DNA from: Eledone cirrhosa
Taxonomy: Eukaryota
Direction of reading: 5' to 3'
Assembly: GCA_964016885.1 (NCBI GenBank)
Contig: OZ024744.1
Coordinates: 88,784,001 to 88,848,000, forward strand
DNA: 64,000 nucleotides
Shown here: positions 750 through 59,824 of the stretch, piece after piece
Numbering within the stretch: the stretch's first letter is position 1
Layout of the letters: each line of letters opens with the position of its first letter
Program-made: the position numbers and the translations under genes
The notes under the pieces: model-generated
Databases searched by the model: none
What the model was told of the DNA's origin: nothing
Seen by the model: only the letters and a program-made list of their open reading frames with translations

Positions 750-1067
<318 letters not shown>

Positions 1068-1086
1068 ATGTATAGTATATTTTAGT

Positions 1087-10363: not shown

Positions 10364-12915
10364 ATTTTTTTATTGGCCACAAGGGCTGACATCAAGAAAA
10401 ACATTACAGACGGCACAGGACGGTACAGGACGGTACGATGTGGGTTTTGTGCGTGTAAATATTTTTATTATTTATATAAGAAAAGAAAAAAAAGGACCTA
10501 GAAACATATATATATAAACATTAAAAATGAAAATTGAAACAATGAAAAATTCCCCAATAGAGGGGAAACCTCCGAGGGTTACATGTGGCGTAAATCACAC
10601 AAAAGACCACGGTCACCCTGACCACCAGGGCAAGCGCCCTCTCTCAATTTTTCCATCTCTCAAACTACAGGCGTATATTCAGAGCGGTCCCGTTCACTCG
10701 GACCATTATCGCTACATTCACCCACCTTTCAACAAACTTGCTAGAAAGCAGCACTTGCCTCTCCACCCTGATTTTTCTCTTCAAGTGAAACTTGAAAAAG
10801 TTAATTAGTGATTTGCCGAAGAGGAAAGTGTATGTATTTAACCCTTTTAAGCTTGTCCACCACACAATCTCTTTCGCCATGGCCACCAGGCAGATGAAAA
10901 CCGCCTGTCCTTCCTCCTCGAAGGAAGACGGCGAGACCATCTGCACAGTGGACTCAGTCGACAAACGGATCAGTCCTACACGCGACAGCAACTGTTCGAC
11001 ATAGCTCCACAAGTCAGCAATGCTCGGGCACTGAAAGAGTGTGTGCAGCACGGTTTCGTCGCTCTGTGCGCATCTCGGACAGGCTCGGCTGACGGCACTT
11101 CTGTGCCTGTAGAGCTTATCTGGAACCGGCAACGCTCCCCGGTAGCACTCCCAGGTCAGGGATTTCTGGAAGTTGTCAATAGACCCCGGGCTGAAAGTTC
11201 TCTTGAAGAGAGCGAACAGCTGATCGTCTTCGACGCCCACGGTCGCCCAGAGAACGTCGTCACTCTTCTCTTCCACTAGTCCTCTATAGAACGCCGAGGT
11301 GAATGTTCCACCGATACTAGTGCCCAGCTGGTAGAAGGCTGTGAGCGCTTGGAGTCATTCCAGCTTCCAAGCACTATCCCTCGGTCTTTTTCTTATCCAG
11401 AACTGCAGCTCCGTTAATGAGACGAGCTGGGGAAAAACACGTCTGGCAAACGGTGACAACACCTGTTCACCGTCAAGGAAGCACAAGAGATGTCGCAGCC
11501 TCAGAGCGTGTTTGCGCATCATCAGCCACGGCACGCCGAGCCCTCCACGCAACGGGTGTTGATGGCAGGTGGATTGTCTGACCATGGGAGCATGTCCCTT
11601 CCATAAAAAGCGGAAGAGGAGGCGCTCCATTTTGCTCAGAGTTGGGCCGGGACAAGCCACAACGGTTAGGCGCTAGTAGATAACGGATGCGATGAACGCA
11701 TTCACCACCTCTACCCGACTTTTAATGGACAGCTTCCTCTCGGCCCATTTCTGGGTGAGAGAGGCCACCGTGTTCGTCACATCGCTCCACTTTTTCTCTA
11801 TCTGGAGGTCCGAACCGAACCAGACCCCGAGCAATTTAACCGGTCCTTCCGTACAGCGCCCCACGACACTGTCGGGCGGCATGGAATTGCTTCTCCAGGT
11901 GCCGAGGTGCAAACCCACTGACTTTTCCTGGTTTAACTCTGCTCCTGTCACTGTTTCATATTCCTTGAGAGCGCTGCCGAGCACCTGGACATGTCCGGTG
12001 TTTGACACCACCACGGTGACGTCGTCGGGGTAAGCCGATACGGATCTCCCACATCCCAGTTCGCGTAGGACGTCTCTCATCGCCTCCAATTTGTGCGATA
12101 TCGGCTCTAGGGCCAATACGCACGAGAGTGACGAGAGGGGACAAACCTGATGGACCGAGCGCATGATGCTGAACGGCTGTGACAGATGACCGTTCACCTT
12201 CACAACTGAGCAGATGTCACTGTGCCTCGCATCGATCAAACCCTTGAAAAAGGGCCCGAAACCAGCCGCCTCGCGGGCTGCCGCCAGATACCGATGGTCG
12301 ACCCTATCAAATGCCTTAACCACCTTCTCTATGATGTATCGCATGAGATGGAGGTTGTCGTGGATGGATTTGTCTGGGATGGCGCATGTCTGCACCTCTC
12401 CCACCAGATCACCGACGACAAGCGCCAATCTCTTTGCTAACACCTTAGCCAAAATCTTGAACACTGTGTTTAGCAGGGTTATGGGCCTGAAGTTCTCTAT
12501 AACGTCCTCTTTGTTCTCAAGTCTGGCATATACGAATAAAGCTCGTAGGGTACACCATCCAAATCTGGCGATTTACCCCTCGTGCAGTTAGACATCGCTT
12601 CCCGTATTTCCCCTGCTGTTATCGGTCTTTCGCAGCACTGCGCTGCGGTCGCCGAGAGCCGCGGCAATCCGTCAAGATATGCACCGAAGTCCATACTCCA
12701 ATCCTGCCCGCCGCCGCCCCCGAACAATTGAAAAGCCGCACACATCTGCTCGACTTTGAACAATATGCGCCCGTTTTGATCAGGCAAACACCGTATTGTG
12801 GATTTGTTGCCACGTCGCGCCTCCACCACCCAGGCCCATTGAACAGCTTTCGTTCCCTCGTGTCTTAGAGCACGCGCTCTAGATCTGACAACGCAGCCTT
12901 CATGCTTTGCGTTGG
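10364..12915 (-). mobile_element. Tx1-clade LINE copy A, 5'-truncated and decayed, (ATT)n-associated
   Basis: RT motifs KAFDRVDH, QVCPLS and AYPDD (ORF 11673-12464). C-terminal CPRC..ETVLHTLFQC (10665-11276). 3' end GTGGCCAATAAAAAAATT then (ATT)n. Confidence 0.92.
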
Positions 12916-12974
12916 GCGAGTGCCAATCTCGCCGCAAGCACATCGGTTGCGATGCCTGTCGTAAATTAGATTAG

Positions 12975-13047: not shown

Positions 13048-15090
13048 ATAATTGTTTCATTTATTGGCCACAAGGGCCGACATATAGCGGAGAATACACA
13101 AGACAGGGACAGTGGGGATTTTACACAAAATTCGAGTAAACAATATAAAAAACAATAGCAATAAACAAGGACAATACAACAATCAAAATTCCCCAATAGG
13201 GAGAATAACCCCAGGGTTGATTCAGGCACCCCACCAATTCTGAACCACCCGACGCTTCGCGGGCATCCTTCTCTTCCTCAAATTAACCAGCCTCAGATGC
13301 ATGCTCAAAGTAGACCCATTCACATGGGCCATTCTCGCCACATTCACCCACCTTTTAGCTAATTTACCGGGGAGCAACACTTTTCTCTACACCCTCACCT
13401 TCCTTTCCAAGTGAAGGCCGAAGAGAAAAGTGTATGTCTTCAGTTCTTTCAACCTGGTCCACCATACAACCTCTTTTGCTACTGCCATTAGACAGAGGAA
13501 AATTGCCTGCCCTACCTGGCCAAAAGAAGGCGGCGGCTCGATCTTCACTATGGATTCGGCCGATAGCCGGATTCGTTCTACAATCGACAACAGCTGTTCG
13601 ACATAACTCCACAAGACGAGTGCGTGCAGAATGGTTTTGTCGTTCTGCGTGCATCTCGGACACAGGTTTATCTCGAACCGGCAGTGCTCCCCGGTAGTAC
13701 TGCCAAATGAGTGATATCTGGAAATTATCCATAGTCCTCCGGCTCGAAAGTCCTCTGGAACAGACTGATCCTTTGCAAGTGCATCATCGCACTGCCCACC
13801 CATAATCCTCTATAGAATTCTAAAGTGGAAGTTCTACTGACCGCATTGCCTGCTTGGTAGTGAGCAGTGATCGCCTGGCAACATTTTAGATGCCAGCTGC
13901 CCAATCTCGGTCACTTCTTGACCCAGGATTGCAGCTCAGTCAGAGAGATGATCTGCGGAAAGACCTGTCTTACAAACGGCGACTACACCTGTTCACCGTT
14001 TAGGCAGAAAATCTAGGGATGCTACAGTTTCAGCGCATGTTTGCGAATCATTAGCCACGGCATGTCCAGCTCTCCATGTAGAGGTTGATGTCAGAAAATG
14101 GACCGCCTCACCAACGGAACCTGTCCCCTCCACAAGAAGTTGAAGAAGACCTGTCCAATTTGGCGAGGCGCGAATAGGGGTAAGGCACGAATGTCAAGTG
14201 GTAGAGATGGCGGACTTGATGTACGCGTTCGCCAGCTCCACCCGACCTTTCAGGAACAGCTTCCTCTCGGTCCATTTGTGGAAAAGAGTAGCCTCACTGC
14301 TCTTTACCTCGTCCAAGTTCTCATCCACCTGGAGGTCTGGTCCAAACCAGACACGCAACAACTTCGCCGGTCCGTCTGTCAAGCGTCCGACGACGCTGTT
14401 GAACAGCATGGATTCGCCTCTCCATTGACCGAGCTGCAAACGCACACAAGATTCTGAGTTGATTTTTGCTCCCGTCAACCTCTCAGATGCCACTAAAAGG
14501 TTGCCGATTACCTAAATTCCCGAGATTTTTACACCAACATGATGTCGTCTGCATCTGCTGACGCAGTTCTTCCACGTCCCGGTTCGAGCAAAGTTCCCTG
14601 CAACAGCTCAAAATTCTACAGTAGTGGCTCGAGAGTCAATACGTATAAAAAGGGAGGAGAGAAGGCGTCCTTGACAGACCCAGCGCGTGATCTGGAACGG
14701 TTCCGATAGATAGCCGTTGACTTTGAACACCAATCAGATGCCACTGTGCATTGCAGGGATCCAACTTCTGAAGACGGAACCGAAGCCGTCTGCGTTGAGA
14801 AGAGCGTCCAGGTATCGATGGTCGATCCAATCGAACACTTTCGGTTGATCGAAATTAAAGAGATACCCCCCCCCCCCCCCCTCCAGCTCATTATCTTCCC
14901 ACTCATCGGTGTATCGCATGAGGTGGAGGTAGTCGTGGATATCTCTGTTTTTATTTGCGCAATCTGAAATATTTCTACCAAACAAATGACGAAAAATACC
15001 AAACTCTTTGCTAACACCTTGGCCAAAATCTTAAACTCTGCTTTTGGTCGAACTATGGCCCGGAAAGTGTCCAGTTTGTCCTTCTTGTTT
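13048..15090 (-). mobile_element. Tx1-clade LINE copy B, 5'-truncated and heavily decayed, ATT-tailed
   Basis: Fragments FDQPKVFDWIDHRYL, KLLRVWFGPDLQV, WQYYRGALPVRDK and VAKEVVWWTRLK. 3' end GGCCCTTGTGGCCAATAAATGAAACAATTATTAT. Confidence 0.9.
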
Positions 15091-30057: not shown

Positions 30058-30356
30058 AAGTCGATTATACTTGATTTATTATATACTTTGTTCTATCGAT
30101 TCTGTAAATATGAAAAGCAAAGTTCATATCGTCAAGATTTTTATATAAACAGCTGCAACTAAATGCGGCGAACTATTTTAGCCGATAGTTTAAAGACTCT
30201 GCCAATCCACCGCGCTAGAGGTACAAGAATAATAAATGCATCTCATCAAAAGATCGAATAAGAAGAAAGAATGAAGAAAAAAGAAAAAGAAATGGAAGAA
30301 CAGAAAGAGAGTTAATTCAATACAGATAGAATAATACTGATAAATGTAGATAGATA

Positions 30357-33169
30357 AATTTCTTTATTAGCCACAAGGGCACAAAAGAAGGGGACAAATA
30401 CAAATGGGGAGTTTACATACAGGTATATGAAAATAAAACTATTAGTAAAATAACAAATAACAATTGAAATCCCCAATAGAGGGGAGGCGTTAGATAGGGG
30501 TTGTACACACCCCGAAAAAATGTACAACCCTCATCTCCGTGAGCACCAAGAGTGAGTACTCCCTTCCTCTCTTCCTCTTTTTCCTCAACCTACAGGCTTA
30601 TATAGAGAGAAGGCCCAACCACTCGGGCCATCTTTTCCACATTCACCCACCTTTTATGAAATTTGCTGGGGTACAGCACCTCTCTCTCCATCCTGATTCT
30701 TCTTCCAAAATGATATTTGAAAAAACGAATCAGTTGCTCGCCGGAGAGAAAGGTGTCTGACCTCAGCCCTTTTAACCTCGTTCACCATATAACCTCTTTC
30801 ACCATAACCATACCACATAGGAAGACCACCCCTCCCTCGTTTTTGAAGGAGGGTGGCGGTTTGATCATGACAATGGACTCAGTGGTCAACTGGATTAGTC
30901 CCACCCGCGACAATAGTCGTTCTACATAGCCCCACAGGTCGGTAACGCCCCGGCAGTGTACAAATGCGTGCGCGACGGTTTCCTCGTCGCGCACGCATCT
31001 CGGACAGATCTTTTTCGAAAGGTCCCTACCCGGGCGCGCGTGTCTGTAGAGCTTGTCTCGGACTCGTAGAGCTCCTCGGTAGCACTGCCAGGCCAGGGAC
31101 TTTTGGAAGTTGTCCATTGGTCCCGGGCGGAAGGTCCTACAGAACAGACTGGCCAGCTCGTCCTCCTCTATGTCCAGAGTTTCTCCGAGCGCGTCGTCGC
31201 ACTTGCTGCGGACAAACCCTCTATAGAATGTCGAAGTGGAATCTCCACTGATCGCCAGGTCCGTTTGCCAGAGGACTGTGAGCGCCTGAGCACATTCGAT
31301 GTGCCAGTCGCTCATTTTCCTCGGTCTTTGCTTGACTCAGGACTGCAGCTCAGCCAGCGAGACGAGTCGTGGGAAGGCGCGCCTCACGAACGGGCCCCAC
31401 ACCGGTCGTCCGGTGAGAAATACGTGGAGGTGCCGCAGCCTGAGCCCGTGTTTGCGCATCGTCAACCACGGCACCCCAGCCCTCTGTTTGAAGGGTGTTG
31501 GCAGCAGATGGATCTTCTCACCAAAGGAGCCCGGTTCTTCCAAAGGAATTGGAAGAGCGCGCGCTCCATTTTGGTGAGTGTTTTGGCTGGACAAGGCACG
31601 ACAGTCAAGCGGTAGTAGATGATGGACACTATAAAAGTGTTCGCCACCTCCGCTCGTCCTTTCAAGGATAGTTTGCACTCGGCCCAATTCTGGGTGAGCG
31701 CAAACATATTGGCAGTCACCTCGTTCCTGTTCTTCTCCACCTGGAGGTCCGGACAAAACCAGACTCCGAGCAGCTTAACCGGTCCTTCCGCCCAGCGTCC
31801 GACGACGCCATCGGAAGGCATCGGTTTGCCTCTCCACGTTCCGAGTTGCAAACCGACGGATTTGTCTCGGTTCAGCTTCGCTCCTGTGAAGCTTTCGTAT
31901 TCCTTCAGTAAATTGCCGACCTCCCCGATTGGCGAGATACTCGACACTACTACCGTCACGTCGTCGGCGTAGGCCGACGCCGCTTTTCGCAGTCCCGGTT
32001 CCAAAGGGATGCCCTTCAATAGCTCCAACTTCTGCAGTAGTGGCTCGAGAGTCAGTACGTACAGCAGGAAGGAGAGAGGGCATTCCTGTCGGATGGATCG
32101 CGTGATATGGAACGGCTTTGAGAGGTAGCCGTTCACCTTGACCCTTGAGAAGATGTTGCTGCTGTGCATTGCAGCAATCCAGCCCCTGAACACGGGTCCG
32201 AAGCCTGCCGCCTCGAGCACCGCATTCAGGTAACGATGATCAACCCTATCGAAAGCCTTAGACTGATCCAAGTTGTTCAGGGCCCCACCGAGGCCGGGTT
32301 TAGACCCTATCCTCTCTATGATGTATCGCATGAGGTGGAGGTTGTCGTGTATGGACCTGGTTGGGATTGCGCATGTCTGCGCTTCTCCCACCAGGTTTTC
32401 GACGACAAGCGCCAGCTCTTTGCAAACACCTTGGCCAAAATCTGTAACTCTGTGTTGAGCAGAGTTATGGGCCGGAAGTTGCCTATGTCATCCCCTTATT
32501 CTTGTTCTTCCTGGCTAACGTGACTACGGCCTTGGTCCCAGAACTGGGAATCCTCCAGTTCTGCTGCCAGAGAGATTTTCATTTGCCGCATTGGATCAGC
32601 GCGTCCCCTATCTCAGCGGCCGAAATCGGCCTTTCGCAGAACTTCGCCTCGCTGTCCGAGAATCGCAGTAGGCCGTCAAGGTATGGACCTAAATCCATAG
32701 ACCATCCCGGCGCGCCGCCCTGCCCGAACAGTTGAGAAAAGTACCGCTGAATGGCCGCGCACATCTGCTTTGGATCACGTATCACGCGTCCGGCTTGGTC
32801 CTTCAAAACCGAATCGTTGACTTGTTGCCACTTTTCGCCTCCGTCAGTCGGGCCCAGCTAACAGCTTTGGCTCCCTCGTTTCCCAGAGCACGTATTTTGA
32901 TTCTGACAACTCAGCCTTCATGCTTTGCGTCGAAGACCTGGTCCAAGGCCGTTCTCGTCGCTAGCACGCTGGCTACGTTGCCACTCCTAAGTGCCTTTTC
33001 TACTTTATCTATCAGTTCCTTCTCGGTCTTATTTCTATCTAACACTAATTCTTTACTAAAACCTATCGAGTCTAATCTAACTGCCCTCTTGAGAGAGTAC
33101 CACCATTTGTTGTTGACAATGGCCTCCGTGAAGTGCTGCTTAACTAAAGTGCTAATCCGTCTACTGTAG
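30357..33169 (-). mobile_element. Tx1-clade LINE copy C, 5'-truncated, GATA-flanked (same family as H)
   Basis: RT ORF 31462-32391 (LDQSKAFDRVDH, QECPLS, AYADD) and CPRCVRDEETVAHAFVHC. The 5' break joins directly to (GATA)n. Confidence 0.95.
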
Positions 33170-33179
33170 ATAGATAAGT

Positions 33180-33251
<72 letters not shown>
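33170..33251. repeat. (GATA)n between copies C and D
   Basis: Directly visible. Confidence 0.98.
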
Positions 33252-33253
<2 letters not shown>

Positions 33254-34367
33254 TGTTTCTTTTATTTGCCACTAGGGCATCAAAAGTGGGACAAGTACAA
33301 AGGGGGGAGTTTACACAAAAAGGCGTCCTCAATAAGGAGGAGGCAATAACAAAATATAAAAATAAAATAAGATATAACAAAAAATAAAATTTATAACAAA
33401 ATCCTCAATAGAGAGGAGGCGCCTTGGGGGGTCGCACACACCCCCGAAAAAAAGTGTGCAACCCTTCTCCTCAGGAGCACAGAGAAGGGGTGCTCCCTTG
33501 GTCTTTCATCTTCCTCACCTATAGTCTGATGTAGAGTGAAGGCCCATTCACACGGGCCATTCTCGCCACTTTCACCCATCTTTCATAAAAACGGCTGGGG
33601 TGCAGCACCTCTCTCTCCATCCTGATCCTTCTTCCGAAATGATATCGGAAGAAACGGACCAGTTGTTGGCCAGAGAGAAAGGTGCCTGACCTCAGTCCTT
33701 TCAGACGCGTCCACCATACAACCTCTTTCGCCACGGCTATTACGCACAGAAACACCGCCTCTCCTTCATCTTTGAAGGGGGGAGGCGGCTTGATCATTAC
33801 AATAGACTCGGTGGTCAACCGGATCGGTCCCACCCTTGACAGCAGTTGTTCGACATAGCCCCACAGATCGGCTACGCCCGAGCAGTGTACCAATGCGTGT
33901 GCAACGGTTTCCTCGTCGCACACGCATCTGGGACAGATCTTTTTAGCGGGGTCCCTACCCGGGCACCCGTGTCTGTAGAGCCTTTCTCGAACGGGTAAAG
34001 CCCCTCGGTAGCACTGCCAGGCCAGGGACTTCTGGAAGTTGTCCATAGGTCCCGGGCTGAATGTCCTACCGAACAGGCTGGCCAGTTCGTCCTCCTCCAT
34101 GTCTAGGGCTTCTCCGAGAGCGTCGTCGCACCTGCTGCGTACCAGCCCTCTATAGAATGTTGCGGTGGAGTCTCCACTGATAACCGGATCCGCCTGCCAG
34201 AGGGCGGTGAGCGCCTGGGCACACTCAGTGTGCCAGGCGCCCAGTTTTCTCGGTCTTTGCTTGACCCAGGATTGCAGCTCGGTGAGTGAGACGAGTCTGG
34301 GAAAGGTTCGTCTCACAAACGAGGCCCACACCGGTTGTCCGGTGAGGAATATGTAGAGGTGCCGTAG
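33252..34367 (-). mobile_element. Tx1-clade LINE copy D, 5'-truncated, (GATA)n on both sides (same family as F)
   Basis: Open ORF2 C-terminus 33519-34331 with CCHC motif. 3' UTR closely matches 48220-48480. Confidence 0.95.
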
Positions 34368-34470
34368 ATAGATAGATAGATAGATAGATAGGAAGAGTCA
34401 GGATCCCGACGGCTGGGCACCGGCCAATTCGGCAGCTAGATCCGAATAGATAGATAGATAGATAGACGGA

Positions 34471-34799: not shown

Positions 34800-35316
34800 C
34801 CAACATCACCACCACCACCACCACCACTACAGTCACTCTCACCACCACCACCACCACACCCACCACCACCACCACCACCACCCCGTTTCCACTACTCTAA
34901 TGTTCAAAGCCGTATTCAACGATGCAAACGAAGAAGGAGGGGGAGGGGGGGAGTGCCGACAAACAAATGCCTCCTTTTCACCTCCTCATCCCTCCACCCT
35001 CCACACATAAACCCACCATCTCTCCCTGACTGCCGCCACTACCACCATCATCACCACCACCACCACCACCACCAACACCACCACCACCACCACCACCACC
35101 ACTACTTACACCACCTCCATCAACCATCACCACTATCAACAACAACAACAACAACAACAATAACAACAACACCAACCACCCGCTGCTTCTGCCATCATGC
35201 CAGAAACTGCTTTTAACCACATCAACTATATATACCATAATACTGTGTGACCATCATCGTCTACCAATACCATCATCATCACCACCATCATCATCATCAT
35301 CATCATCACCACCATC

Positions 35317-35348
<32 letters not shown>

Positions 35349-35444
35349 CGTCATCATCATCGTCATCATCATCATCATCATCACCATTATCATCATCATC
35401 ATCACCATCACCATCATCATCATCATCATCATCATCACCATCAC

Positions 35445-35479
<35 letters not shown>

Positions 35480-43091: not shown

Positions 43092-43171
43092 CTAAGAGGG
43101 TTTGGTAAGATACCAGGTAGACCATAACGCACCAGAGTACTCAATACTTAGGGTAGTAGAGTGGGTAATAG

Positions 43172-43253
43172 GAAAAGAGTCAGGACCCCGACGCCTGAGC
43201 TCCGGCCGTTTCGACAGCTAGATCCGAATGCCGTCGGGATCCTGATTCTTTTC
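43172..43253. repeat. Short hairpin element with a hammerhead 3'-half remnant; related fragment at 34391-34447
   Basis: GAAAAGAGTCAGGACCCCGACG / CGTCGGGATCCTGATTCTTTTC arms. The minus-strand loop has GTC-GAAA-CGGCCG. Confidence 0.6.
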
Positions 43254-44012: not shown

Positions 44013-44111
44013 TTATATAGATAGGTAGATACATAAATATATACACATATATAGAGAGAGACAGGCAGGCAGACAGATAGATAGATAGATAGTCTGAAAG
44101 ATAGATAGATA

Positions 44112-47100
44112 TATTTCTTTATTTGCCACAGGGGCGTACAAAAAATGGAACATTACAAGACGTGACGGCGGGGGTTTTACATACAAAACTTTAACATTAA
44201 TAAATAACAATAAAGTATATATAATAAAATAATAATTGAAATCCCCAATAGGGGCGAACGTTACTGCAGGGTTGTTTTACACCCCGTGGATAGAACAACC
44301 CTCAACACCAGGAACACGTTTTGTAGGTGTTCCTGTCTTCCCTTTGTTTATCTTCCTCAAACTACAGAAAAGGCCCATTCACTCTAGCTATTTTCGCCAC
44401 ATTCACCCACCTTTCAGCGAATTTACTGGGGTGTAGCAGCTCTCTCTCCACTCTCACCTTCCTTCTGAAGTGGTACTTAAAGAAGGGGATAAGTTGTTGT
44501 CTGGAGAGAAAGGTGCTTGCCCTCAGTCCTTTTAACCTCGTCCACCATATTACCTCTTTCGCCATAGCCACCAGACAGAGGAAAACCGCCTCTCCTTCAT
44601 TCTTAAATAAAGGCGCCTTACGATAGACTCGGCTGACAACTGGATGCGTCCCACACGTGACAGTAGCTGTTCGACATAGTTCCACGGGTCGGTCACCCCT
44701 GGGCACTGAACAATTGCGTGCAGAACGGTTTCGATGTCCTGCTCGCATCTTGGACAGGTCCTTTTGGCAGGATCTCTGCCAGGGCGTCCGTGCCTGTAGA
44801 TTTTGTCTCAAACTGGTAGAGCTCCTCAGTAGCACTGCCAGGCCAGAGACCTCTGGAAGTTATCCATGCGCCCTGGATGGAAAGTCCTCCCGAACAGACT
44901 AGTCAGTTCGCCCTCCTCGATGCCTAGAGTTTCCCCGAGAACGTCGTCGCACGTATCCTCCACTAATCCCCTATAGAATGTCGAAGTGGAGTCTCCGCTG
45001 ATTGCCGGTTCCGCTTGGTAGAGGGCTGTGGTCGCCATAAGGCACCCGAGGTGCCAGGCACACATTTTCGGTCTTCGCTTGACCCAGGACTGCAGCTCTG
45101 TTAGTGAGACGAGTTGTGGAAGTACTTGTCTCACAAACGACAGCCACACCGGTTCACCGGTCAGGAAAACCTGGAGATGGCGTAGCCTCAGCGCGTGTTT
45201 GCGCATCATCAGCCACGGCATGCCCAGCCCTCCGTTAGAAGGGTGTTGACAGCAGATGGATCTCCTCACCAATGGAGCCTGTTTCTTCCAGAGGAACTTG
45301 AAGAGTAGGCGTTCCATTTTGGTGAGGTATTCGCAGGGACAAGGCACGACTGTCAAGCGGTAGTAGATGACGGACGTTATGTAAATGTTCGCCACCTCCG
45401 CTCGACCTTTCAAGGAGAGTTTGCACTCAGCCCACTTCTGGGCGAGTGCAAACACCTTCGCCGTGACCTCGTTCCTATTCTTGTCTACCTGGAAGTCTGG
45501 ACCAAACCAGACCCCGAGCAATTTCACCAGTCCTTCCGTCCAGCTCCCAACGGCACTGTCGGAAGGCATGGGTTTACCTCTCCATGTGCCGAGTTGCAAA
45601 CCGACAGACTTGTTTGGGTTTAGATTTGCTCCTGTCAACGTTTCGTATTCCTGTAATAGGTTGCCGATTACCCAGATTTCCGAAGTTTTCAACACCATTA
45701 CGGTTATGTCGTCGGCGTAACCCGACGCTGCTTTCTGCAGTGCTGGTTCGATCGCGATGCGCTGCAACAGCTTCAGCTTCCGCAGTAATGGCTCGAGAGT
45801 CAGTACATACAGAATGGAGTACATACGGATGGAACATACGGCTCCGATGGAATGGCTCCGATAGGTAGCCATTCACCTTGTCTGCCGAGCAGATGCTGGT
45901 GTGCATCCAGCCTCTGAAGACGGGACCGAAGCCGGCCGCCTTGAGAACTGCTTCCAAGTATTGATGGTCGACCCTATCAAATGCCTTAGACTGATCTAAA
46001 TTGATCAGAGCCCCACCAAAGCCAGGTTTACACATTACCCTCTCTATGATGTATCGCATGAGGTGGAGGTTGTCGTATATGGACCTGGTCGGGATTGCAC
46101 ACGTTTGCGCTTCCCCTACCAGGTTCTCCACGACAAGCGCCAGCCTCGCTGCTAACATCTTGGCCAAAATCTTTAAATCTGTGTTGAGCAAAGTTATGGG
46201 CCTGAAATTGGTTATTTCACCCCCTTGTTCTCATCTTTCCTGATCAGCGTTACTACGCCTCTGTCTACAGAACTGGGAATCTTCCCGTTCTGCTGCCAGT
46301 TGCAGTAGACCGCTTCGAGGACGCCAGAGAACAAGTCTGGCATGCCTATGTAAAGCTCATAGGGTAGACAATCTAAAACGGGTGATTTGCGTTTCCCGCA
46401 GCGGCCTAGGGCATCTTCTATTTCGCCCGCTGTGATCGGCCTTTCACAGCTCTCTGCACCCGTGCTCGAGAGTCGTGGTACGCCGTCGAGATAGGAGCTG
46501 AAGTCCATCACCTCCCTCGATATACCGCTTTCCCGAACAGTTGTACAAAATTCTGCTGGAAGGCCGTCCACATCTGCTTGGATTCAAGTAAAATGCGTCC
46601 ATCTTTGTCTTACAAAGACCGATTTGTGGATTTGTTGCCACTTTGTTGCCAGCTAACAGCTTTGGCTCCCTCGTTTCTTAGAGCACGTGTTCTACTTCTG
46701 ACAATACAACCTTCGTGTTTCATGTTGAAGAACTGGCCTAGTGCCGTTCTCGCCGCTAGCACGTCAGCTGTACTGCCATTCCTAAATGCCTCTTCTACTT
46801 TAGCTACCAGTTCCTTTTCGGTTTTGTTTTGTTTTCTAAAGCTACTTCCTTGCTAAATGCTATCGATTCTATTCTAATTGCTCTCTTGAGAGAGCTCCAC
46901 CACCTGTTGTTGACGATCGCCCCTGTCAACTGGTACTTAACAAAAGTGCTAACCCGTTTACGCGCCGGAAGCGACATGTTTAGCTTCCAGTATCCGGGTC
47001 CCTGTCTATGTGTTCTATCAAGGTTAACTGCGCAGGTGACTAATTTGTGTCTGAATAGGCAACCATGTGCATTTGTGGACAGCTTAATGTTTCCTTATCA

Positions 47101-48205
47101 TTCTGTCTAATTAAAAAATCAATCTAAATACGATCTAGAAGACCCAGTGCGGTTGCTCCACGTCCACAGTGGTACACTTGGGAAGTTTAGTCGATATCTA
47201 TCAGCCAGTTCCAACTGGCTTGATTTTTTTAGTCTATTACACCCCACTCTATTATCACAAGCTACTACATATTCCCAACGTGCATCTAAGAAGCCATTCC
47301 AGACCCTGCTAACACTAAGGAGCGAGCCGTTCCCAGGAATGTCTCCAGACGCTTGAAGAGCTCTGGTCGCGATGTCCCAGTCGGGGCATATACAGCCACC
47401 AGTCTGAAAGCTACACCTTCACTACCATTCACGTCCAGGACTACCAAGCTGCCTTCCGGGTCCAAGTGAATCGTCTACGCTTTGAGATCCAAGATTTTTC
47501 GAAGTAGAACAGCATCACCCCCTCCACCTCCTGGCTGACAGAGAGATGCGTAGATCTCAAAGTCATCGAACATGGGAGTTAGCTGCTGCTTGTCGTGAAA
47601 ATGGACTCGGTGATGGCTATCACATCTAAACAATGTGACCTGAGATCATTTAAAAGCTGGCCCTGTTTCCAGGGCATGCCCAGGCCACGTACATTCAAAC
47701 ATCCAACTTGCATAGTCGCCATGTTGGTGAGGAAGAGTTAGGGAGAGAAAAGGTAGGAACACTTACCTTTTCGTTTCCTGGAGGTTGGGTTGTTCGATCT
47801 CCATGCTCAGATTGGGGGTGTTGGGAAGGGAGGGAATCCTTTTAGCAGGACACGGTTAAGGAGTATTTTGGCAAGGGGGGCCCACATCATATGGAAAGTT
47901 CCCTTTTAAAGTTTCGTACTGTAGGGTTGTTACCTTGATCAGTTTGAGGTTGGTGGGGAAGGGCCGCGACCTTTTGGTGAAGAAGCTTCAGCCATTTTAA
48001 AAAATGTTAGCTTTTCAAAATAAAAAAACTTTTTGTTAACTATTTCGCCTAAAGGCGTAGAATATTTTGAGAGACTGACCAGATCAAAATTTGACCTGGC
48101 AGTCCCTCTACAAAATGGTACAAAAATGAAAGTTTACAGTCAAGAATTTCTATAGAAATTTAAGCAGAACATACCCAGCAAGCTTCACACGTGTGTCCAT
48201 CCCAG
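44112..48205 (-). mobile_element. Tx1-clade LINE copy E: decayed ORF2 and ORF1 C-terminus, fused to an F-family 5' end
   Basis: RT (LDQSKAFDRVDH, GYADD), decayed endonuclease at 47000-47722 and a (GATA)n 3' flank. 47972-48205 is near-identical to 53658-53892. Confidence 0.92.
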
Positions 48206-48480
48206 AGATAGATACATAATTTTCTTTTTATTTGCCACCAAGGCATCAAAAAGTGGGACAAGTATAATGGGGGAGTTTACATGAATAGGCGTCCTCAATA
48301 AGGAGGAGGCAATAACAAAGTATAAAAATAAAATAAAATATTACAAAATAAATTTTATAACAAAATCCTCAATAGGTAGGAGGCGCCTTGGGGGGTCGCA
48401 CACACCCCCGAAAAAAGTGTGCAACCCTTCTCCTCAGGAGCACAGAGAGGGGTGCTCCCTTGATCTTTCATCTTCCTCAC

Positions 48481-51400
48481 CTATAGTCTGATGTAGAGTG
48501 AAGGCCCATTCACACGGGCCATTCTCGCCACTTTCACCCATCTTTCATAAAAACGGCTGGGGTGCAGCACCCTCTCTCCATCCTGATCCTTCTTCCGAAA
48601 TGATATCGGAAGAAACGGACCAGTTGTTGGCCAGAGAGAAAGGTGTCTGACCTCAGTCCTTTCAGACGCGTCCACCATACAACCTCTTTCGCCATGGCTA
48701 TTACGCACAGAAACACCGCCTCTCCTTCGTTTTTGAAGAGGGGAGGCGGCTTGATCGTTACAATAGACTCGGTAGTCAACCAGATCGGTCCCACCCTTGA
48801 CAGCAGTTGTTCGACATAGTCCCACAGATCGGCAATGCCCGGGCAGTGTACCAATGCGTGTGCAACGGTTTCCTCGTCGCACACGCATCTGGGACAGATC
48901 TTTTTTGAGGGGTCCCTACCCGGGCGCCCGTGTCTGTAGAGACTTTCTCGAACGGGCAGAGCCCCTCGGTAGCACTGCCAGGCCAGGGACCTCTGGAAGT
49001 TATCCATGGGTCCCGGGCTGAATGTCCTACCGAACAGGTTGGCCAGTTCGTCTTCCTCCATGCCTAAGGCTTCTCCGAGGGCGTCGTCGCACCTGCTAAC
49101 CACCAGCCCTCTATAGAATAACGAGGTGGATTCTCCACTGACAGCCGGGTCCTCCTGCCAGAGAGACGAGAGCGCATGGGCACACTCGGTGTGCCAGGCA
49201 CCCAGTTTTCTCGGTCTTTGCTTGACTCAGGATTGCAGCTCGGTGAGTGACACGAGTCTGGGAAAGACTCGCCTCACAAACGGGGCCCACACCGGTTGAC
49301 CGGTGAGGAATACCTGGAGGTGCCGTAGCCTTAATGCGTGTTTACTTATCATTAGCCACGGCATCCCCAGCCCTCCTTTCGAAGGGTGTTGACAGCAGAT
49401 GGATCTCCTCACCATAGGAGCCCGCTTCTTCCAAAGGAATTGGAAGAGTGAGCGCTCCATTTTGGCGAACGTTTCCCTTGGGCAAGGCACTACGGTCAGG
49501 CGGTAGTAGATGACGGACGCTATATAAGTGATAAGTGTTCGCCACCTCCGCCCGACCTTTCAGGGACAGTTTTCACTCGGCCCACCTCTGGGTCAGTGCA
49601 AACACCCTGTTCGTTACCTCACCCCAGACTCCGAGCAACTTCACCGGGCCCTCCGTCCAGCGCCCGACGACGCCATCGGAGGGCATCGATCTTCCCCTCC
49701 ACGTGCCGAGTTGCTGACCGATCGACTTGTCCCGGTTCAACTTAGCCTCTGTAAACCTTTCGTACTCCTCCAGTAAGGTGCCGATCGCCCCAATTTCCGA
49801 GGCCGTCGACACCATTACTGTTATGTCATCGGCGTAGGCCGACACCGCTTTCCGCAATCCCGGTTCCAACGGGATGCCCTGCAACAACTCCAACTTCCGC
49901 AGCAGTGGCTCTAGAGTCATTACATACAGAATGGAGGAGAGAGGGCACCCTTGTCGGATGGACCGCGCGATTTCGAACGGCTCCGAGAGGTAGCCGTTCA
50001 CCTTGACCCTAGAGCAGATGCGGCTGCTGTGCATGGCATTGATCCAGCCTCTGAAAACGGGTCCGAAGCCTACCGCCGCTAGCACTGCATCCAGGTAACC
50101 TATCGAACCCCTTAGATTGATCCAAGTTGATCAGGGCCCCACCTAATCCGGGTTCGTTCCCAACCCTCTCTATGATGTATCGCATGAGGTGGAGGTTGTC
50201 GTGGATGGACCTGGATGGGACAGCACATGTCTACGCATCTCCCACCAGGTTGCCCACGACAAGCGCCAACCTCTTTGCTAGCACCTTGGCTAAAATCTGT
50301 AACTCTGTATTTAGCAGAGTTATGGGCCTGAAATTATTTATATCGACCCCCTTGTTCTCGTCCTACCTCACTAGCGTGACTACGCCCTTGGTCACAGCAC
50401 AGGGAATTCTCCCGTTCTGTTGCCAGTTGCAGTAGACCGCCTCGAGGAGATCGGGGAACAAGTCCGGCATAGCTAGATATAGTTCGTAAGGAAGACCATC
50501 GAGACCCGGGGATTTGCGTTTGCCGCATTGGCTCAGCATGTCCTCTATCTCAGCGGCTGAAATCGGCTCCTCGCAGGACTTCGCATCCCTGTCCGAGAGA
50601 CGCGGCAGGCCGTCGAGGTATGGACCTAAGTCCACTTCCCCAACCGGCTCCCCGCCCCTTCCGAACAATCTGGCAAAGTGCTTTTGAAAAGCCTCGCACA
50701 TCTGCTTAGGCTCAAGGATCACCCGTCCATCCTGGTCTCGCAAAGACCGGATAGTGGAACTACTCCCTCTTTTGGCTTATGTCACGCGGGCCCAGCTAAC
50801 AGCTTTGGTCCCCTCGTTTCCCAGAGCACGTTTTTGCCTCGGACGATGCAGCCTTCGTGTTTCGCGTCGAAGAACTGGCTCAGGGCCGTTCTCGACGCTA
50901 GCACTCTGGCCACGTCGCCGCTTCTAATTGCCTCTTCTACACTATCTACTAACTCCCTTTCCTTCCTATTTCTATTTGAGGCTAACTCCTTACTAAATTC
51001 TATAGAGACTACTCTAATCTCTCTTTTGAGAGATCCCCACCACCTGCTGTTGACGATGGCGCCCGTCAACCGCTCCTTAACTAAAGTGCTAATCCGGTCC
51101 CTGTAAGCTCTACTTGCCGGTAAGGACAAGTTGAGCTTCCAGTAACCGGGTCCCTGTTTATGCGTTCTGTTAAGGTTGACCATTCAGGTCACTAACTTGT
51201 GGTCTGAATAGCCAACCATGCGCATTTTTGGACAACTTAAAAAGTCCTTATCCTTATTTCTAACTAAGAACCTATCTAGGTACGACCTACATGATCCGCT
51301 GCGGTTTGCCCAAGTCCAGGCTGGCGCAGTCGGAAAATCTAGTCGATATCTATCGGCCAGGTCAAATCGACCGATTAACCCTTTGAGGCTATTACACCCC

Positions 51401-51879
51401 TCTCTATCGGGACAGGCACCTACGTAGTCCCAGCGTGCATCTAGGATACCATTCCAGTCCCCCACTAATAGCAAGGAGCGGGACGTCCCGAGAAAAGTCT
51501 CCAGACGATGGAAGAAGTCCGGCCGCATTGACCCGAAAGGGGCGTAAACGGCGACAAGCCTAAAGGCTTCGCCTTCACCACTGCCAAGGTCCAGAAGCAC
51601 CAGTCGACCATCCGGGTCCAAGTGTACCGTCTGTGTAGCGAGACCCAGATGTTTTTGCAGCAGAACGACAACCCCACCCCCACCACCGGGCTGACAGAGA
51701 GATGCGTGCATCTCAAAGTGATCAAAGGTGGGGGCCAGCTGTCGCACGTTGCTGATCCGGACCTCGCAAATAACCATCACATCTATACGTTGTGACCTGA
51801 GGTCATTTAGAAGTTTAGCTTGCTTCCAAGTTGAGCCCAGCCCACGCGCATTTAGACAGCCTACTCTTAGCATAGCCAT
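48481..51879 (-). pseudogene. Copy F ORF2 (APE endonuclease, RT, CCHC)
   Basis: CLNARGL, VGDWN, SYLDRF, YSDH; QGCPLS, AYADD; CPRCVCDEETVAHALVHC. Confidence 0.95.
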
Positions 51880-51901
51880 GTTGGTGGTGAAGAGAAAAGG
51901 C

Positions 51902-51909
51902 ACTTACCT
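51902..51909 (-). promoter_or_regulatory. Putative 5' splice donor AG|GTAAGT overlapping the ORF1 stop (equivalents at 47766, 57774, 63137)
   Basis: The motif is present at the same position in all four copies that retain the ORF1/ORF2 junction. Function is inferred. Confidence 0.55.
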
Positions 51910-53681
51910 CTCTGCGTCCCGGGTATCGGGCTGCACAATTTCCATGAGGGTGGAGGATGGGTTGTTGGGTGGGGTGGTGGTTTGTGGAAGTGTAGGGGCA
52001 TCAGTGTGTTGTGTGGTTGGGGTGTTTGGAGTTGTGTGGGTGTTTGGGGAGGGGGTGGGGTAGTTTTATAGGAGGACGCGGTTAATGGGCCCGACGCAGG
52101 GGGTGGGGGGACGTCCTCTTTAAAGTTGTTTTTTAGTGTTTTATAAGTGTCCTCTTAATCATTTTGAGGTGGGGGAAATCCCCTGCCTGGGTGAAGTTAG
52201 GCCCTTGGGTTTTTATCAAATTGTTGTTGTACACAATGTTTAACAGTTTTTTGTTTCTTGTGTTTATGTATGTGTATGCATGTTTTTGTTTTTGTGTGGT
52301 GTTTTTTGTTTGCTGTTGTTGTGTGCTCTTTTGTGTTGGTGTCAGTGTTATATTTTGGGGAGGGGTTGTTTTCATTTGTGTGTCTGAGGTGTGTTTTCTT
52401 TTTTTTTCTTTTGATTGTGTGGAAGTGCTCCTCCTCGTCTGACGACGAACGAGGGTCATCTTCCGCGTTGGAGGGAAGGGGTATATTTTCGGGTTGTGTT
52501 TGCGGTGCGGGTATTTTGGAAATTTTTTTTAGTGTGTGGGGGGGGACATTGTTTTGTTTTGGTTTGAGCTGTGGTTGTTGTTTTTGTAGTGGTGGTTGTG
52601 GTGATTGTGTTGGTTGTGCAGTTGTTGGTGGTGTAGGCAGGATTGGGGTTTTCTTATTAAGTTGAGGACAGACAGCACTCAGGTGACCTCTGGTTACACA
52701 GAGGTAACACGAGGGCCGCCTTCCCTCAACGGTAATGTTGATAAAAGTTTGATCATCCAGTATGACGCGTTCAGGGATCTGGGTGATCCTTTCGGGCCTC
52801 ATTTGAACTACAAGTTCGAGGCTCATTCCACTGAACGCATCACCCGATGCCTTTCCCATGGATATTAGTGTGTCCTCGTCTAGGTTCAGGAAACCTGTCA
52901 AAACCCACCATATGTCCATAATCGGCAGGATGTTGTGGATTTTTATTTTTTGTGTCCTTCTACCCATGTACGTAGGGTAGAAGGTGTATGCGGTGGATGT
53001 AATTGGTTTTATAGACAGTTTCACTGCCGTGTCCATGTCCTTCATGAGAATGGATAGACTCCCGTAGAGTCTATCCTTCTGAATGAATGTGATGTCTTTC
53101 ATGACGTCTTTTAAAACCAGCTCTATCTCACTCTGTGATGGTTGAGCTGGTTTTTGCTTTTGTTTGAGATTGTCCTAAACATGACAGTGTTTAGGAGTCT
53201 CTGGCCTTTTAGTTCCGGGGGAGTGGATCGAAAATGATCCATTTTCCCCGTACATTATGTATTTTTTGGCATCTGCCAGTAGCTCCTTAGCTTTGCTTAT
53301 ATCTACTGGCAGATAGTCGAGGGTTTTCCTTGCCGTCTGGGCAAAGGAGACCTTTTCCTTGTTTGTGTTGCTGTTGTAGTTGGTGGTGTTGTTGTTATCA
53401 TTGTTGTTGTTTTCACAGTTATTGGTCTTGTTGTTGTTGTTATTGTTATTGTTGTTGGTGTTGTTTTCGTCCGTAGCATTGTTATTGTTGTTGTTGCCGG
53501 TGCCGCTGGTTGTTTGGTTTGTTGACATGGCAATGTCAATTTGTCGGTCAGCAGGTGGAGAAAATCCTTCCTCTGGCTGACCTTTGTCTTTGACATCTGC
53601 TACTATGACAGTGGCAGGGGGAAGCTGTAAGCATATCTTCCCCTTTCCTCCTTCGAATTTTGGTGAAGAAGCTTCAGCCAT
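51904..53681 (-). pseudogene. Copy F ORF1 (Gag-like, CCHC knuckle)
   Basis: Starts MAEASSPK, contains CYLCVTRGHLSAVC and a Pro/Thr/Lys-rich tail, ends MEIVQPDTRDAER*. Split over several frames. Confidence 0.85.
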
Positions 53682-53891
53682 TTTAAAAAATGTTAGCTTT
53701 TCAAAATAAAAAACTTTTTGTTTAACTATTTCGCCTAAAGGCGTAGAATATTTTGAGAGACTGACCAGATCAAAATTTGACCTGGCAGTGCCTCTACAAA
53801 ATGGTACAAAAATGAAAGTTTACAGTCAAGAATTTCTATAGAAATTTAAGCAGAACTTACTCAGCAAGTTACACGCGTGTGTCCATCCCAG

Positions 53892-54073
<182 letters not shown>

Positions 54074-54304
54074 ATTTCTATTTATTTGCCACGAGGGGAC
54101 AAAAGAAGGGGACATTTACACAGTGGGGGAGTTTACATAAATCGAGTAAAGAAAAAAGGAATAACAATAATAATATAACAATAAAAAGTCCTCAAAAGGG
54201 AGGGGGCGTGTTGGGGATTGCACATACCCCCGAAAAGTGTGCAACTCTTTTCGCGGGGGAAGCCCAGAGAGGAGGCGCTCCCCATTTCCTCTTCACTTCT
54301 TCAC

Positions 54305-57300
54305 CTACAGAACAATGTAGAGAGAAGGCCCATTTACACGGGCCATTCTCGCTTCTTTCACCCACCTTTCATAAAACTGTCTGGGACCAAGCACTTCTCT
54401 CTCCATCCTGATCCTTCTTCCGAAGTGGTATCGGAAGAAGTAAACCAGGTGATGGCCGGAGAGAAAGTCACCCGACCTTTCAGGCGCGTCCACCACACAA
54501 CCACTTTCATCATGGCTATTACGCACAGAAAGACCGCCTCTGCTTCATTTCTGAAGGGAGGAGGCGGCTTGATGTTCACCACAGACTCGGCGGTTAATCG
54601 AATCGGCGCCACACGCGACAGCAGTCGTTCGACGTAGCCCCACAGATCGGCAACGCCCGGGCAGTGTACCAGTGCATGCGCAACGGTTTCCTCGTCGCGC
54701 ACGCATCTGGGACAGATCTTTTTCGCGGGATCCCTGCCCGGGCGCCCGTGTCTGTAGAGCTTTTCTCGAACGGGCAGAGACCCCGGTAACACTGCCAGGA
54801 TAGGGACCTCTGGAAGTTGTCCATGGGTCCCGGGCCGAAAGTTCTACCGAACAGGCTGGCCAGTTCGTCCTCCTCCATGCTTAGCGACTCTCCAAGGGTG
54901 TCGTCGCCCCTGCTAGCCACCAACCCTCTATAGAATGTCGAGGTGGATTCTCCACTGACAGTCGGGTCCGCTTGCCAGATAGCCGTGAGCGCCTGGGCAC
55001 ACTCGGTGTGCCAGTTGCCCAGTTTTCTCGGTCTTTGCTTCACCCAGGATTGCAGTTCGGTGAGCGAGACGAGCTGTGGGAAGGCTCGCCTCACAAATGG
55101 GGCCCACATCGGCTGCCCGTTGAGGAATACCTGTAGATGCCGTAGCCTCAATGCGTGCCTACGCATCAACAGCCACGGCATACCCAGCCCTCCTTTCGAA
55201 GGGTGCTGGCAGCAGATGGATCTCCTCACCATGGGAGGCCGCTTCTTCCAGAGGAACTGGAAGAGCATGCGTTCCATGATGGTGAGCTTTTCCTTGGGGC
55301 AAGGCACGACGGTCAGGCGGTAGTAGATGACGGACGCTATGTAAGCGTTCGTCACCTCCGCCCGACCTTTCAGTGATAGTTTGCACTTGGCCCACTTCTG
55401 GGTCAGCGCAAACACCCTGCTCGTCACCTCGCCCCAATTCTTCTCCACCTGGAGGTCCGGTCCGAACCAGACCCCGAGCAGCTTCACCGAGCCCTCCGTC
55501 CACCGCCCGACGACACCGTCTAACGGCATCGGTTTGCCCCTCCACGTTCCGATTTGCAAACCGACTGACTTGTCCTGGTTCAGCTTAGCCCCCGTCAGCC
55601 TTTCGTATTCCTCCAGTAGGGTGGCGATCGCCCCGATTTCTGAGGCGTCCGCCACCATTACTGTTACGTCGTCGGCATAGGCCGAGACCGCTTTGTGCAA
55701 TCCCGGTTCCAGGGGTATGCCCCGCAGCAACTCCAACTTCCGCAGCAGTGGCTCGAGAGTCAATACGTACAGAAGGGAGGAGAGGGGTCACCCCTGTCTG
55801 ATGGATCGGGTGATTTGAAACGGCTCCGAGAGGTAGCCGTTTACTTTAATCCTAGAGTAGATGTTGCCACTGTGCATGGCAGAAATCCAGCCCCTGAAAA
55901 CGGGTCCGAAGCCCGCCGCCGCTAGCACCGCATCCAGGTAACCATGGTCGACCCTATCGAACGCCTTAGATTGATCCAAGTTGATCAGGGCCCCACCAAA
56001 GCCGGGTTCGTAGCCAACCCTCTCTATGATGTATCGCATGAGGTGGAGGTTGTCGTGAATGGACCTGGACGGGATAGCGCATGTCTGCGCGTCTCCCACC
56101 AAACCACCCACCACAAGCGCCAACCTCTTCGCCAACACCTTGGCCAAAATCTGTAACTCTGCATTCAGCAGAGTTATGGGCCTAAAGTTACTTAAGTCGT
56201 CCCCCTTGCTCTCGTCCTTCCTCACTAGCGTGACCACGCCCTTGGTCACAGAACAGGGAATTCTCCCGTTCTGTTGCCAGTTGCAATAGACAGCCTCGAG
56301 GAGTTCGGAGAACAAGACCGGCATAGCTAAATAAAGTTCGTATGGTAGACCATCGAGACCCGGGGATTTGCGTCTGCTGCATTGGCTGAGCGCTTCCCCG
56401 ATTTCAGTGGCTGTGATTGGCCTTTCGCAGCACTCCGCTTCGCCGCTCGAAAGACGCGGTAGACCGTCGAGGTATGGACCGAAGTCCACATCCCCGTCCG
56501 GCCCCCCGCCACCTCCGAACAGTCGAGCAAAGTGCCTTTGAAAGGCCTCGCACATTCGCTCAGGTTCAAGGATCATCCGTCCATCCTGGTCTCGCAAAGA
56601 CCGAATGGTGGATTTAATCCCACTCTTGGCTTCTGTCACGCGGGCCCAGCTAACAGCTTTGGTCCCCTCGTTTCCTAAAGCACGTATTTTACTTCGGACA
56701 ACGCAGCCTTCGTGCTTCGCGTCAAAGAACTGGCTCAACGCCGTTCTCGCACGCTAACACTCTGGCTACGTCTCCGCTCCTAATCGCCTCTTCTAGTTTA
56801 TCTGTTAACTCCCTTTCCTTCCTATTTCTATTCGCCGCTAGTTCCTTACTGTAACCTATCGAACTTACTCTAATCTCTCTCTTTAGAGATACCCACCACC
56901 TACTGTTGACGATCGCTCCCGTCAACCGCATCTTAACTAAGCTACTAATCCGGTTTCTGTAATCTTTCTTTGTCGGCAAGGACAAGTTCATCTTCCAGTA
57001 ACCGGGACCCTGTCTATGCGTTCTATCAAGGTTGACCACGCAGGTCACTAATTTGTGATCTGAATAGCCAACCATGATCAGTTCTGGACAACTAAATACG
57101 TCCCTATCCTTACTCCTAACCAAAAACCTATCTAGGTACGATCTAGATTGTCCACTGCGGTTTGCCCAGGTCCAGGTTGGCGCAGTTGGACAATCTAGTC
57201 GAAATCTATCGACCAGGTCGAATCGATCGAGTAACCCCTTGAGGCTGCTACACCCCCCTCTATCGGGACATGCCCCTGCATAGTCCCAACGCGCATCTAG

Positions 57301-57739
57301 GATTCCATTCCAGTCCCCCACTAAAAGCAGGGAACGCGACGTTCCTAGAAAAGTCTCCAGACGCTGGAAGAAGTCGGCTCTTTCCGCCCCGAAGGGAGCA
57401 TAAAGACCGACCAGTCTGAAAGCCCCGCCTTCACCGCCTCCGACGCCCAGCACCAGTAATCGACCCCCCGGGTCCGAGTGAACAATCTGTACGTCGAGAG
57501 TCAGACGTTTATCCAGCAGTACGGCAACTCCCCCCCCCCCCGCCTCCGGGTTGACAGAGAGATGCGTGCATCTCAAAGTCATCGAAGGCGGGCGCCAGCT
57601 GTCTCACGCTGCTGATCCGACTCTCGCAAACAACCATCACATCTATACTTTGTGACCTGAGGTCACTTAGAAGCTTTGCTTGCTTCCAAGCTGAGCCCAG
57701 GCCACGCGCGTTCAAACAGCCAACTCTCAATTGATCTAT
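54305..57739 (-). pseudogene. Copy G ORF2 (APE endonuclease, RT, CCHC)
   Basis: RVGCLNARGL, VGDWN, YSDH, KSPGLDG, NFRPITLLN, KAFDRVDH, AYADD, CPRCVRDEETVAHALVHC. Confidence 0.95.
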
Positions 57740-57770
57740 TTTGGTGTTGAAAGTGAAGAAAGAAAAGCAC

Positions 57771-59573: not shown

Positions 59574-59774
59574 GCTGCCAAGAAAGAAATTTTTCGGCAA
59601 AAATAGATATTTATTTTACCCCCTAAAAAGGGGGTAAATGCAAAAATGTTTCCCTAAATAACAGGGGTTAGTGTTCCAAATGTGTTGCACTGAAAAATTT
59701 ATCCGGTACTTACAATAGTAAGGGTAAATCCCGATGGAATAGCGGAGCCGATGTGAAGCGTGTCTTACTCTATC

Positions 59775-59814
<40 letters not shown>

Positions 59815-59824
59815 GAGATAGATA

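Follow-up and report, generated by a model that had tools for sequence, protein, structure and literature searches.

Kibi, Koshi and the crocodilian Tx1 elements are retrotransposons with an apurinic/apyrimidinic endonuclease (APE) that insert into microsatellites, namely (TC)n, (TTC)n and (TTCC)n/(TTTC)n (PMC4494074, PMC3812793). The targets listed in the literature are TC, TTC, TTCC, TTTC, AC, ACAY, TAA and TG, and GATA is not among them in the available portions of these papers (PMC4494074, PMC3812793, PMC4640811). The mechanism of microsatellite targeting has been called not well understood (PMC3812793). L1-Tx1 elements, including 13 recently active families, have been reported in octopuses, with no target described in the accessible parts of the reports (PMC13282606, PMC8967140). 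Here we describe a family of APE-type elements in a 64,000-nt stretch of DNA from Eledone cirrhosa (contig OZ024744.1, positions 88,784,001 to 88,848,000 of the 3.0-Gb assembly GCA_964016885.1; hereafter the window). The window carries eight related copies, A-H, all on the minus strand. The family resembles Kibi, Koshi and crocodilian Tx1 (compared by description only), but its target is TATCT(AT) and its host is a mollusc.

We conclude that the targeting is real and genome-wide, and that it represents a new target (GATA) for an already known strategy. Our reading, to which we assign a probability of roughly 60%, is that a very young L1/Tx1-like lineage enters DNA at TATCT(AT) in one fixed register, for the most part within (GATA)n, through a nick in the GATA strand and pairing of UAUC units at the RNA end. 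GATA thereby joins the microsatellites known as targets of APE-type elements, and the strategy now reaches cephalopods. No GATA-targeting long interspersed element (LINE) was found in the partial literature searched, a search that did not extend to Repbase.

Insertion in a fixed register at TATCTAT

The last 400 bp of copies C, D, G and E, without the TATC units, were used as queries, and the best 40 of 881-3,331 candidate places were scored per query. This gave 134 non-window copies (C 39/39, D 37/39, G 39/39 and E 19/39), extended to 6.8 kb where needed; the sample is biased to young copies of at least 400 bp. It included 41 full-length copies, 8 that extended past the fetched locus and 85 that were truncated.

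We observed that bases 1-7 of the flank after the element matched TATCTAT in 94-99% of the 134 copies, with 81% at base 8, and that TATCT directly abutted the 3' end in 119. Poly(A) was absent from the 3' ends of all 134 copies, as no flank opened with five A (17/19 of the E flanks were read one base late). The first target unit varied by locus (TACCT, TATGT, TGTCT). The target core is about TATCTAT in fixed register, and therefore single units are also hit. In random DNA, 71/129 TATCTAT heptamers sit in arrays of at least 3 units, as against 74/817 TATCT pentamers; the heptamer preference thus largely explains the association with GATA arrays. One copy (L132) was inserted in a 32-bp minisatellite whose unit has a single TATCT.

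Within the window, the claim that copies C-H all end in GTGGC(A/T)AATAAA..GAAA.. followed by TATC repeats was confirmed at 30357, 33254, 44112, 48218, 54073 and 59825. Only about 2-3 TATC units follow C and F, and those of F are degenerate.

A genome rich in simple repeats could give such a picture passively, if copies landed at random and selection, conversion or mis-assembly then acted in the repeat tracts. However, the base-exact register was seen in copies down to 0.02% apart and on many chromosomes, and the genome also has a sister family that inserts at (ATT)n. The window copies are mutually 7-27% divergent and therefore are not collapsed duplicates. We consider this passive explanation hardly credible.

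TATC repeats at truncated 5' ends

A copy was scored as 5' positive if two TATC units lay within 25 nt of its broken end, and as isolated if no family tail lay within 120 nt. The truncated copies were positive in 54 of 85 cases, and the isolated ones among them in 39 of 65. The background was only 0.25% (1,012/399,000 random positions with two TATC units at most 25 nt upstream, from 20 x 10 kb on both strands). In the (ATT)n sister family A, TATC was seen at the 5' end in 0/13 copies (Fisher p = 1e-5 for the contrast with the GATA family). The 26 isolated misses were inspected by eye and with BLAST. Eight were not true 5' ends, as other family sequence continued there, and nine showed a lone TATCT together with a target-site duplication (TSD), or (TA)n, or else a run that was degenerate or stopped slightly upstream.

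TSDs of at least 9 nt that include non-repeat bases were present in 18 truncated copies (e.g. L156, L044, L166, L142 and L025). Thirteen of these were 10-20 bp, and four or five longer ones lay in periodic hosts. The TSD opens directly behind the last base of the element, and in no case did additional inserted units account for a copy better. The copy L156 lies inside another repeat, and 5/5 uninterrupted paralogues of this repeat hold the duplicated 17-mer once, reading TACCT, while the insertion-bearing copy reads TATCT on both sides. This host repeat is the nearest analogue of an empty allele. The paralogues of the L044 host repeat are only 73-85% identical, and are weaker evidence of an empty site than L156.

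These findings bear on an opposite account, in which TATC is an expanding tail made by the element, neighbours' tails or template jumps supply the 5' GATA, and there is no further insertion specificity. Consistent with it, 15 of the 54 positive truncated copies adjoin a family tail, three of the four 5' tracts in the window are neighbours' tails, and a TATC stretch seems to belong to the 5' end of full-length copies themselves. It does not account for the 39 isolated copies with 5' TATC, for TSDs with unique bases that start at the first post-element base, or for a first unit that depends on the locus, and the clean L156 analogue already contradicts it. We regard the tail account as very improbable. 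The isolated truncated 5' flanks, the TSDs with non-repeat bases and the empty site in a host repeat led us to conclude, with high confidence, that TATC is a pre-existing target and not an element-made tail. The original prediction had proposed GATA as such a target and had named in advance the tabulation of 5' flanks as what could overturn it; on the 85 truncated copies elsewhere in the genome, this tabulation upheld it.

The truncated junctions showed 0-6 nt of microhomology in any repeat phase (10/8/7/6 across the four phases). Copy C (30357..33169) is a 5'-truncated copy of 2.8 kb, running from the reverse transcriptase (RT; RVT_1) to the 3' untranslated region (UTR); its 3' flank (30347..30356, minus strand) is a short target, TATCTATCTA. 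It belongs to the C/H subfamily (91-92% identity to copy H). Copy D (33254..34367) is a 5'-truncated copy of 1.1 kb with zf-RVT, in the D/F subfamily (93% identity to copy F). The TAG microhomology noted earlier at both 5' junctions is real: at 33167-33169 for C, where H continues ...CACTGTAG|GCTT, and at 34365-34367 for D, where F continues ...GCCGTAG|CCTT. The (GATA)n tract at 33170..33253 serves both as the C 5' flank and as the D 3' flank. The 5' flank of D is (GATA)6 at 34368..34390, and, as had been stated, it is not the tail of any family copy; after it come a piece of a short palindromic element present in many copies and more GATA/GA. GATA was also said to lie on both sides of F and G. 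These tracts are present, but they are weak evidence, being the 3' flanks of neighbours. In three of the four window cases, C, F and G, the GATA at the 5' end doubles as a 3' flank, of D, G and H respectively, so that only D is independent evidence of a target inside the window.

In three copies (L010, L018 and L134) the TATC run was separated from the truncated element by 20-40 extra letters, copied from the flank or from pieces of the element. This suggests template jumps.

Full-length 5' ends and the proposed route of insertion

All 37/37 full-length G copies read TATC|TTGATAG at their 5' end, in a single phase. In L108/L109 and L091, a variant-bearing TSD was followed by 7-11 additional TATC letters. 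Judged from these junctions, the RNA likely begins within upstream TATC units, and full-length copies would carry their own 5' TATC head. Since such copies seem to bring their own head, GATA preceding a full-length copy is not proof of targeting. A search for a 5'-end ribozyme (Rfam) found nothing in the window and, in the intact copy L103 (640-1000), only weak matches that fell far short of the gathering score.

From the observed site, TSDs and junction patterns, we infer the nick, the RNA ends and their pairing as follows. The 3' end of the element abuts TATCTAT without poly(A), and the sequence after it is that of the target, duplicated as a mostly 10-20 bp TSD with no extra units detected. 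The APE would nick the GATA strand and leave a primer ...ATAGATA-3'OH (the register being uncertain by one base). The AATAAA lies only 5-8 nt before the element end, which is too close for cleavage at that end; the transcript would therefore read into the flanking TATC units of the donor, and the register would be set by the pairing of these units with the primer. Reverse transcription would start at the element end, and a second nick 10-20 nt away would create the TSD. A truncated cDNA would then join by the short microhomologies in any phase, while the end of a full-length G cDNA, from RNA starting in upstream TATC, would anneal to the target. The duplicated target beside each copy does draw more copies, building same-strand head-to-tail arrays such as H-G-F-E. 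A same-strand family member was found at most 200 nt downstream in 44/115 copies, and an opposite-strand one in 2.

Pairing between RNA and target has precedents in R1Bm and SART1Bm, for which it has been proposed in the sections available (PMC7265360). These two elements, together with Waldo and Mino of the same R1 clade, are alike in operation, being APE elements targeting repeats. They differ in clade and in targets, and the likeness is one of mode, with no membership claimed.

Several observations weigh against the reading that we favour. The absence of extra units fits priming by the endonuclease alone equally well. Duplication of early target variants was not significantly rarer in full-length than in truncated copies (5/12 vs 23/49, p = 1.0, with the E rows misread). 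The flank started with TATAT in 5/134 copies, mostly in (TA)n. Nine of the 65 isolated truncated copies had neither a TATC-like 5' flank nor a TSD (L006, L023, L036, L053, L092, L133, L153, L160 and L213); these may be later rearrangements. Contigs of 4 sequencing runs reached only as far as the masked repeat at the 5' junction of L110, a young G site, and had neither joints nor loose ends; they revealed no empty allele and are uninformative. Finally, of the 7 GATA arrays found in 200 kb of random DNA, 3 adjoin a family copy, and some GATA tracts may have grown after insertion. Contig depth at L110 came to about 3,000 over the 5' UTR, as against about 5-8 over the flank; such a depth is not a copy number.

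The (ATT)n sister lineage and the choice of site

Copies A (10366..12960, 5' limit approximate) and B (13050..15066, limits approximate) and their genomic relatives terminate in (ATT)n and not in TATC; B is a second ATT-type sister lineage. A survey of 277 3' ends at all loci gave 205 of TATC type, 58 of ATT type, 6 TA and 8 other, and the type tracks the subfamily. At the 5' end, (ATT)n was found in 4/13 truncated A copies, a weaker signal than that for GATA. When the C-terminus of ORF2 (open reading frame 2) was used for a tree, the TATC subfamilies came out as a single branch (100%). It lies inside an octopod group in which the remaining members have the ATT type or no assigned target; the base is without resolution. 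The tree suggests that the target may have switched from ATT to TATC. We also observed that sister copies ending in (ATT)n (L171-L194, L216-L239, L272-L291) often lie just upstream of short dispersed repeats.

Dong, of the R4 clade, is reported to target (TAA)n, the same repeat as the A/B lineage (PMC3812793), and Dong-R4 is described as active in Octopus vulgaris (PMC13282606), both according to the excerpts available. Unlike the APE of the A/B lineage, the endonuclease of Dong (R4 clade, PMC4640811) is restriction-like, and the shared target would therefore be convergence.

The original prediction had ascribed the GATA specificity to the endonuclease (EN) alone. In this alternative, the APE reads about ATAGATA and sets the site, and the RNA ends at GAAATT with no pairing needed. 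It agrees with the strict 7-nt core, the fixed register and the absence of extra units. As far as the available text goes, the Tx1L EN is sequence-specific in vitro (PMC1950540), and an EN swap alters the specificity of SART1/TRAS1 (PMC7265360). The EN also diverges more than the RT between the GATA and ATT lineages (identity ~45% vs ~69%, the EN figure being low since the A copy is frameshifted). However, between the ATT lineage (NRIGSSRS) and the GATA lineages (NR(S/T)G(S/T/Q)SRS) the bB5-bB6 hairpin loop is changed at essentially a single position. Both targets can be read as starting with TAT, (TA)n is also hit, and the AATAAA is too near the element end for an RNA ending there. In the parts available of a study of L1 and Tx1L, the hairpin loop probes the target, loop shape matters more than loop sequence, and other loops are also implicated (PMC1950540). 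Given the role of shape and of other loops, the near-identical loop of the sister lineage weakens the case for endonuclease control of site choice without overturning it; endonuclease-only specificity, as claimed, is thus unproven. We consider site choice by the endonuclease alone rather unlikely, and think that RNA-target pairing likely contributes.

The two sister lineages (RT ~69% identical) have different targets, intact young copies and near-identical hairpin loops. With this pair, the endonuclease and RNA-DNA pairing become directly testable as the site chooser in microsatellite-targeting LINEs. A GATA-directed, vertebrate-free system of target-primed reverse transcription could also interest gene-insertion work.

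The wider family covers 3.6% of 200 kb of random DNA, and therefore probably shapes GATA arrays, and repeat annotation, in the host genome. A more far-reaching picture can be drawn, of an active octopod radiation apart from vertebrate Tx1L, which switched from (ATT)n to (GATA)n while its endonuclease loop hardly changed. Host repeat units, carried at both RNA ends as copies, would here be the main determinant of the site, a self-propagating RNA-guided loop that would also seed and lengthen much of the GATA microsatellites of the genome. We hold this larger picture to be speculative and doubtful.

Coding capacity, age and clade

Copies C-H are a family of APE/RT retrotransposons of the non-LTR kind (lacking long terminal repeats), in the L1 group. 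Pieces of ORF2 match Pfam PF03372 (APE) and PF00078 (RT), and weakly PF13966 (zf-RVT), and the family shows 5' truncation and TSDs without LTRs. The genomic G copies are 5.70 kb, with an ORF1 of 625 codons and an ORF2 of 1166 codons (both stop to stop). ORF1 had no Pfam match, and holds a CX2CX4HX4C (CCHC) knuckle.

The full-length G copies showed a mean pairwise divergence of 0.73% (minimum 0.02%, 35 aligned), and both frames were open in 10/35. These low divergences and open frames indicate that the G subfamily is very young, and it is probably currently active. In this subfamily, although it is the youngest, ATA replaces the ATG of ORF2 and overlaps the TAG of ORF1. A splice-donor-like GGTAAGT motif with a pyrimidine tract was seen just before ORF2 (L103:2695-2745; window near 47763, 51901, 57770 and 63134), exact in E, F and L103 and with one change in window G and H.

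A single-sequence fold of the EN was poor (predicted local distance difference test, pLDDT, 50), and an alignment-based fold was used instead (pLDDT 92.8). The best structural match of this model was the L1 EN (template-modelling (TM) score 0.83), and the catalytic positions of the EN are invariant. The ESM Atlas returned generic RT/EN clusters only. The nearest named protein was from Argonauta hians (70% identity over part of the RT), which points to an octopod as the likely host. The family is like human and vertebrate L1 in domain order, EN fold, 10-20 bp TSDs and truncation microhomology. It differs in having no poly(A) and a predicted purine-rich primer, whereas L1 is described, in the portion available, as priming on T-tracts with poly(A) at 5'-TTTT/AA (PMC1950540).

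The family had been placed in the Tx1 clade. The best curated match of ORF2 was Xenopus Tx1L (P14381 = P0226; 29% identity, 305 bits), as against 169 bits for human L1 (same program, different database). RT identity was 32-35% to Tx1-like elements and 21-28% to L1. Like the present family, Tx1L has an ORF2 with APE and RT and is site-specific; it differs in targeting the Tx1D transposon and in its ORF2 of 1308 aa (~1145 aa in the present family). In quick RT trees (43 and 29 rows, LG+G4, with Tx1L as the only curated Tx1 reference), the family joined unnamed 1,150-aa proteins (100%), and the backbone was without resolution. It fell outside the vertebrate L1 branch (langur + fish, 99%), but also outside the branch of Tx1L + fish Tx1 (100%). 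Constraining it with Tx1L + fish Tx1 (19 rows) gave a log-likelihood (lnL) 4.7 better than the free quick tree (approximately unbiased test, p-AU 0.64); constraining it with vertebrate L1 (19 rows) was 15.2 lnL worse and not rejected (p-AU 0.18).

Tx1 elements have two ORFs, with a CCHC knuckle in ORF1, as does the present family, a feature that is not exclusive to Tx1. More than 20% of its flanks are of one sequence type, as in the target preference described for the Tx1 clade in the text available (PMC4494074). No sequence named Kibi, Koshi, Keno, Mutsu or Dewa was among the protein matches. Taken from sequence comparison, the earlier placement probably stands for the Tx1 clade in a broad sense; the closeness to Tx1L held, and in the free trees the family lay outside its branch. 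A sister branch was also noted, of ORF2 relatives of 1,145-1,160 aa and ~40% identity, in clusters of up to 732 members (P0002, P0006, P0008, P0014 and P0025).

Layout of the window

Copies E, F, G and H are arranged head to tail, in an array that starts at 44112 and continues past 64000. Copy E (44112..47971), of the E subfamily, has a broken ORF2 and the end of ORF1, with an interrupted (GATA)n at 44076..44111 as its 3' flank. An F-type 5' UTR (47972..48206, minus strand), 96% identical to 53658-53892 of F, is fused to it. This UTR on the more divergent copy E, joined directly to the ORF1 end, is either a chimera or a large internal deletion. Copy F (48218..53892) is full length (5.67 kb) with broken ORFs. 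It is separated from G by (GATA)31 and an interrupted tract (53893..54072), inside which, near 54017-54031, a ~12-nt remnant of another family 3' end was seen. Copy G (54073..59776) is full length (5.70 kb) and of the youngest subfamily; its ORF2 is frameshifted in the window and intact in genomic copies. A (GATA)9 tract (59777..59824) separates it from H (59825..64000), which extends ~1.3 kb past the window to a full 5' end. About 35 TATC units precede that end (locus L169), and no family sequence matched further upstream.

Outside the family, a short palindromic element, resembling a miniature inverted-repeat transposable element, lies beside microsatellites at 43170-43255 and 34391-34445 and has 789 genomic candidates. 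A long mixed ATC/CAC/AAC/CTA triplet tract (35013-37470) adjoins the GATA/GA tract, and a 132-bp minisatellite of ~8 copies occupies 4768-5927.

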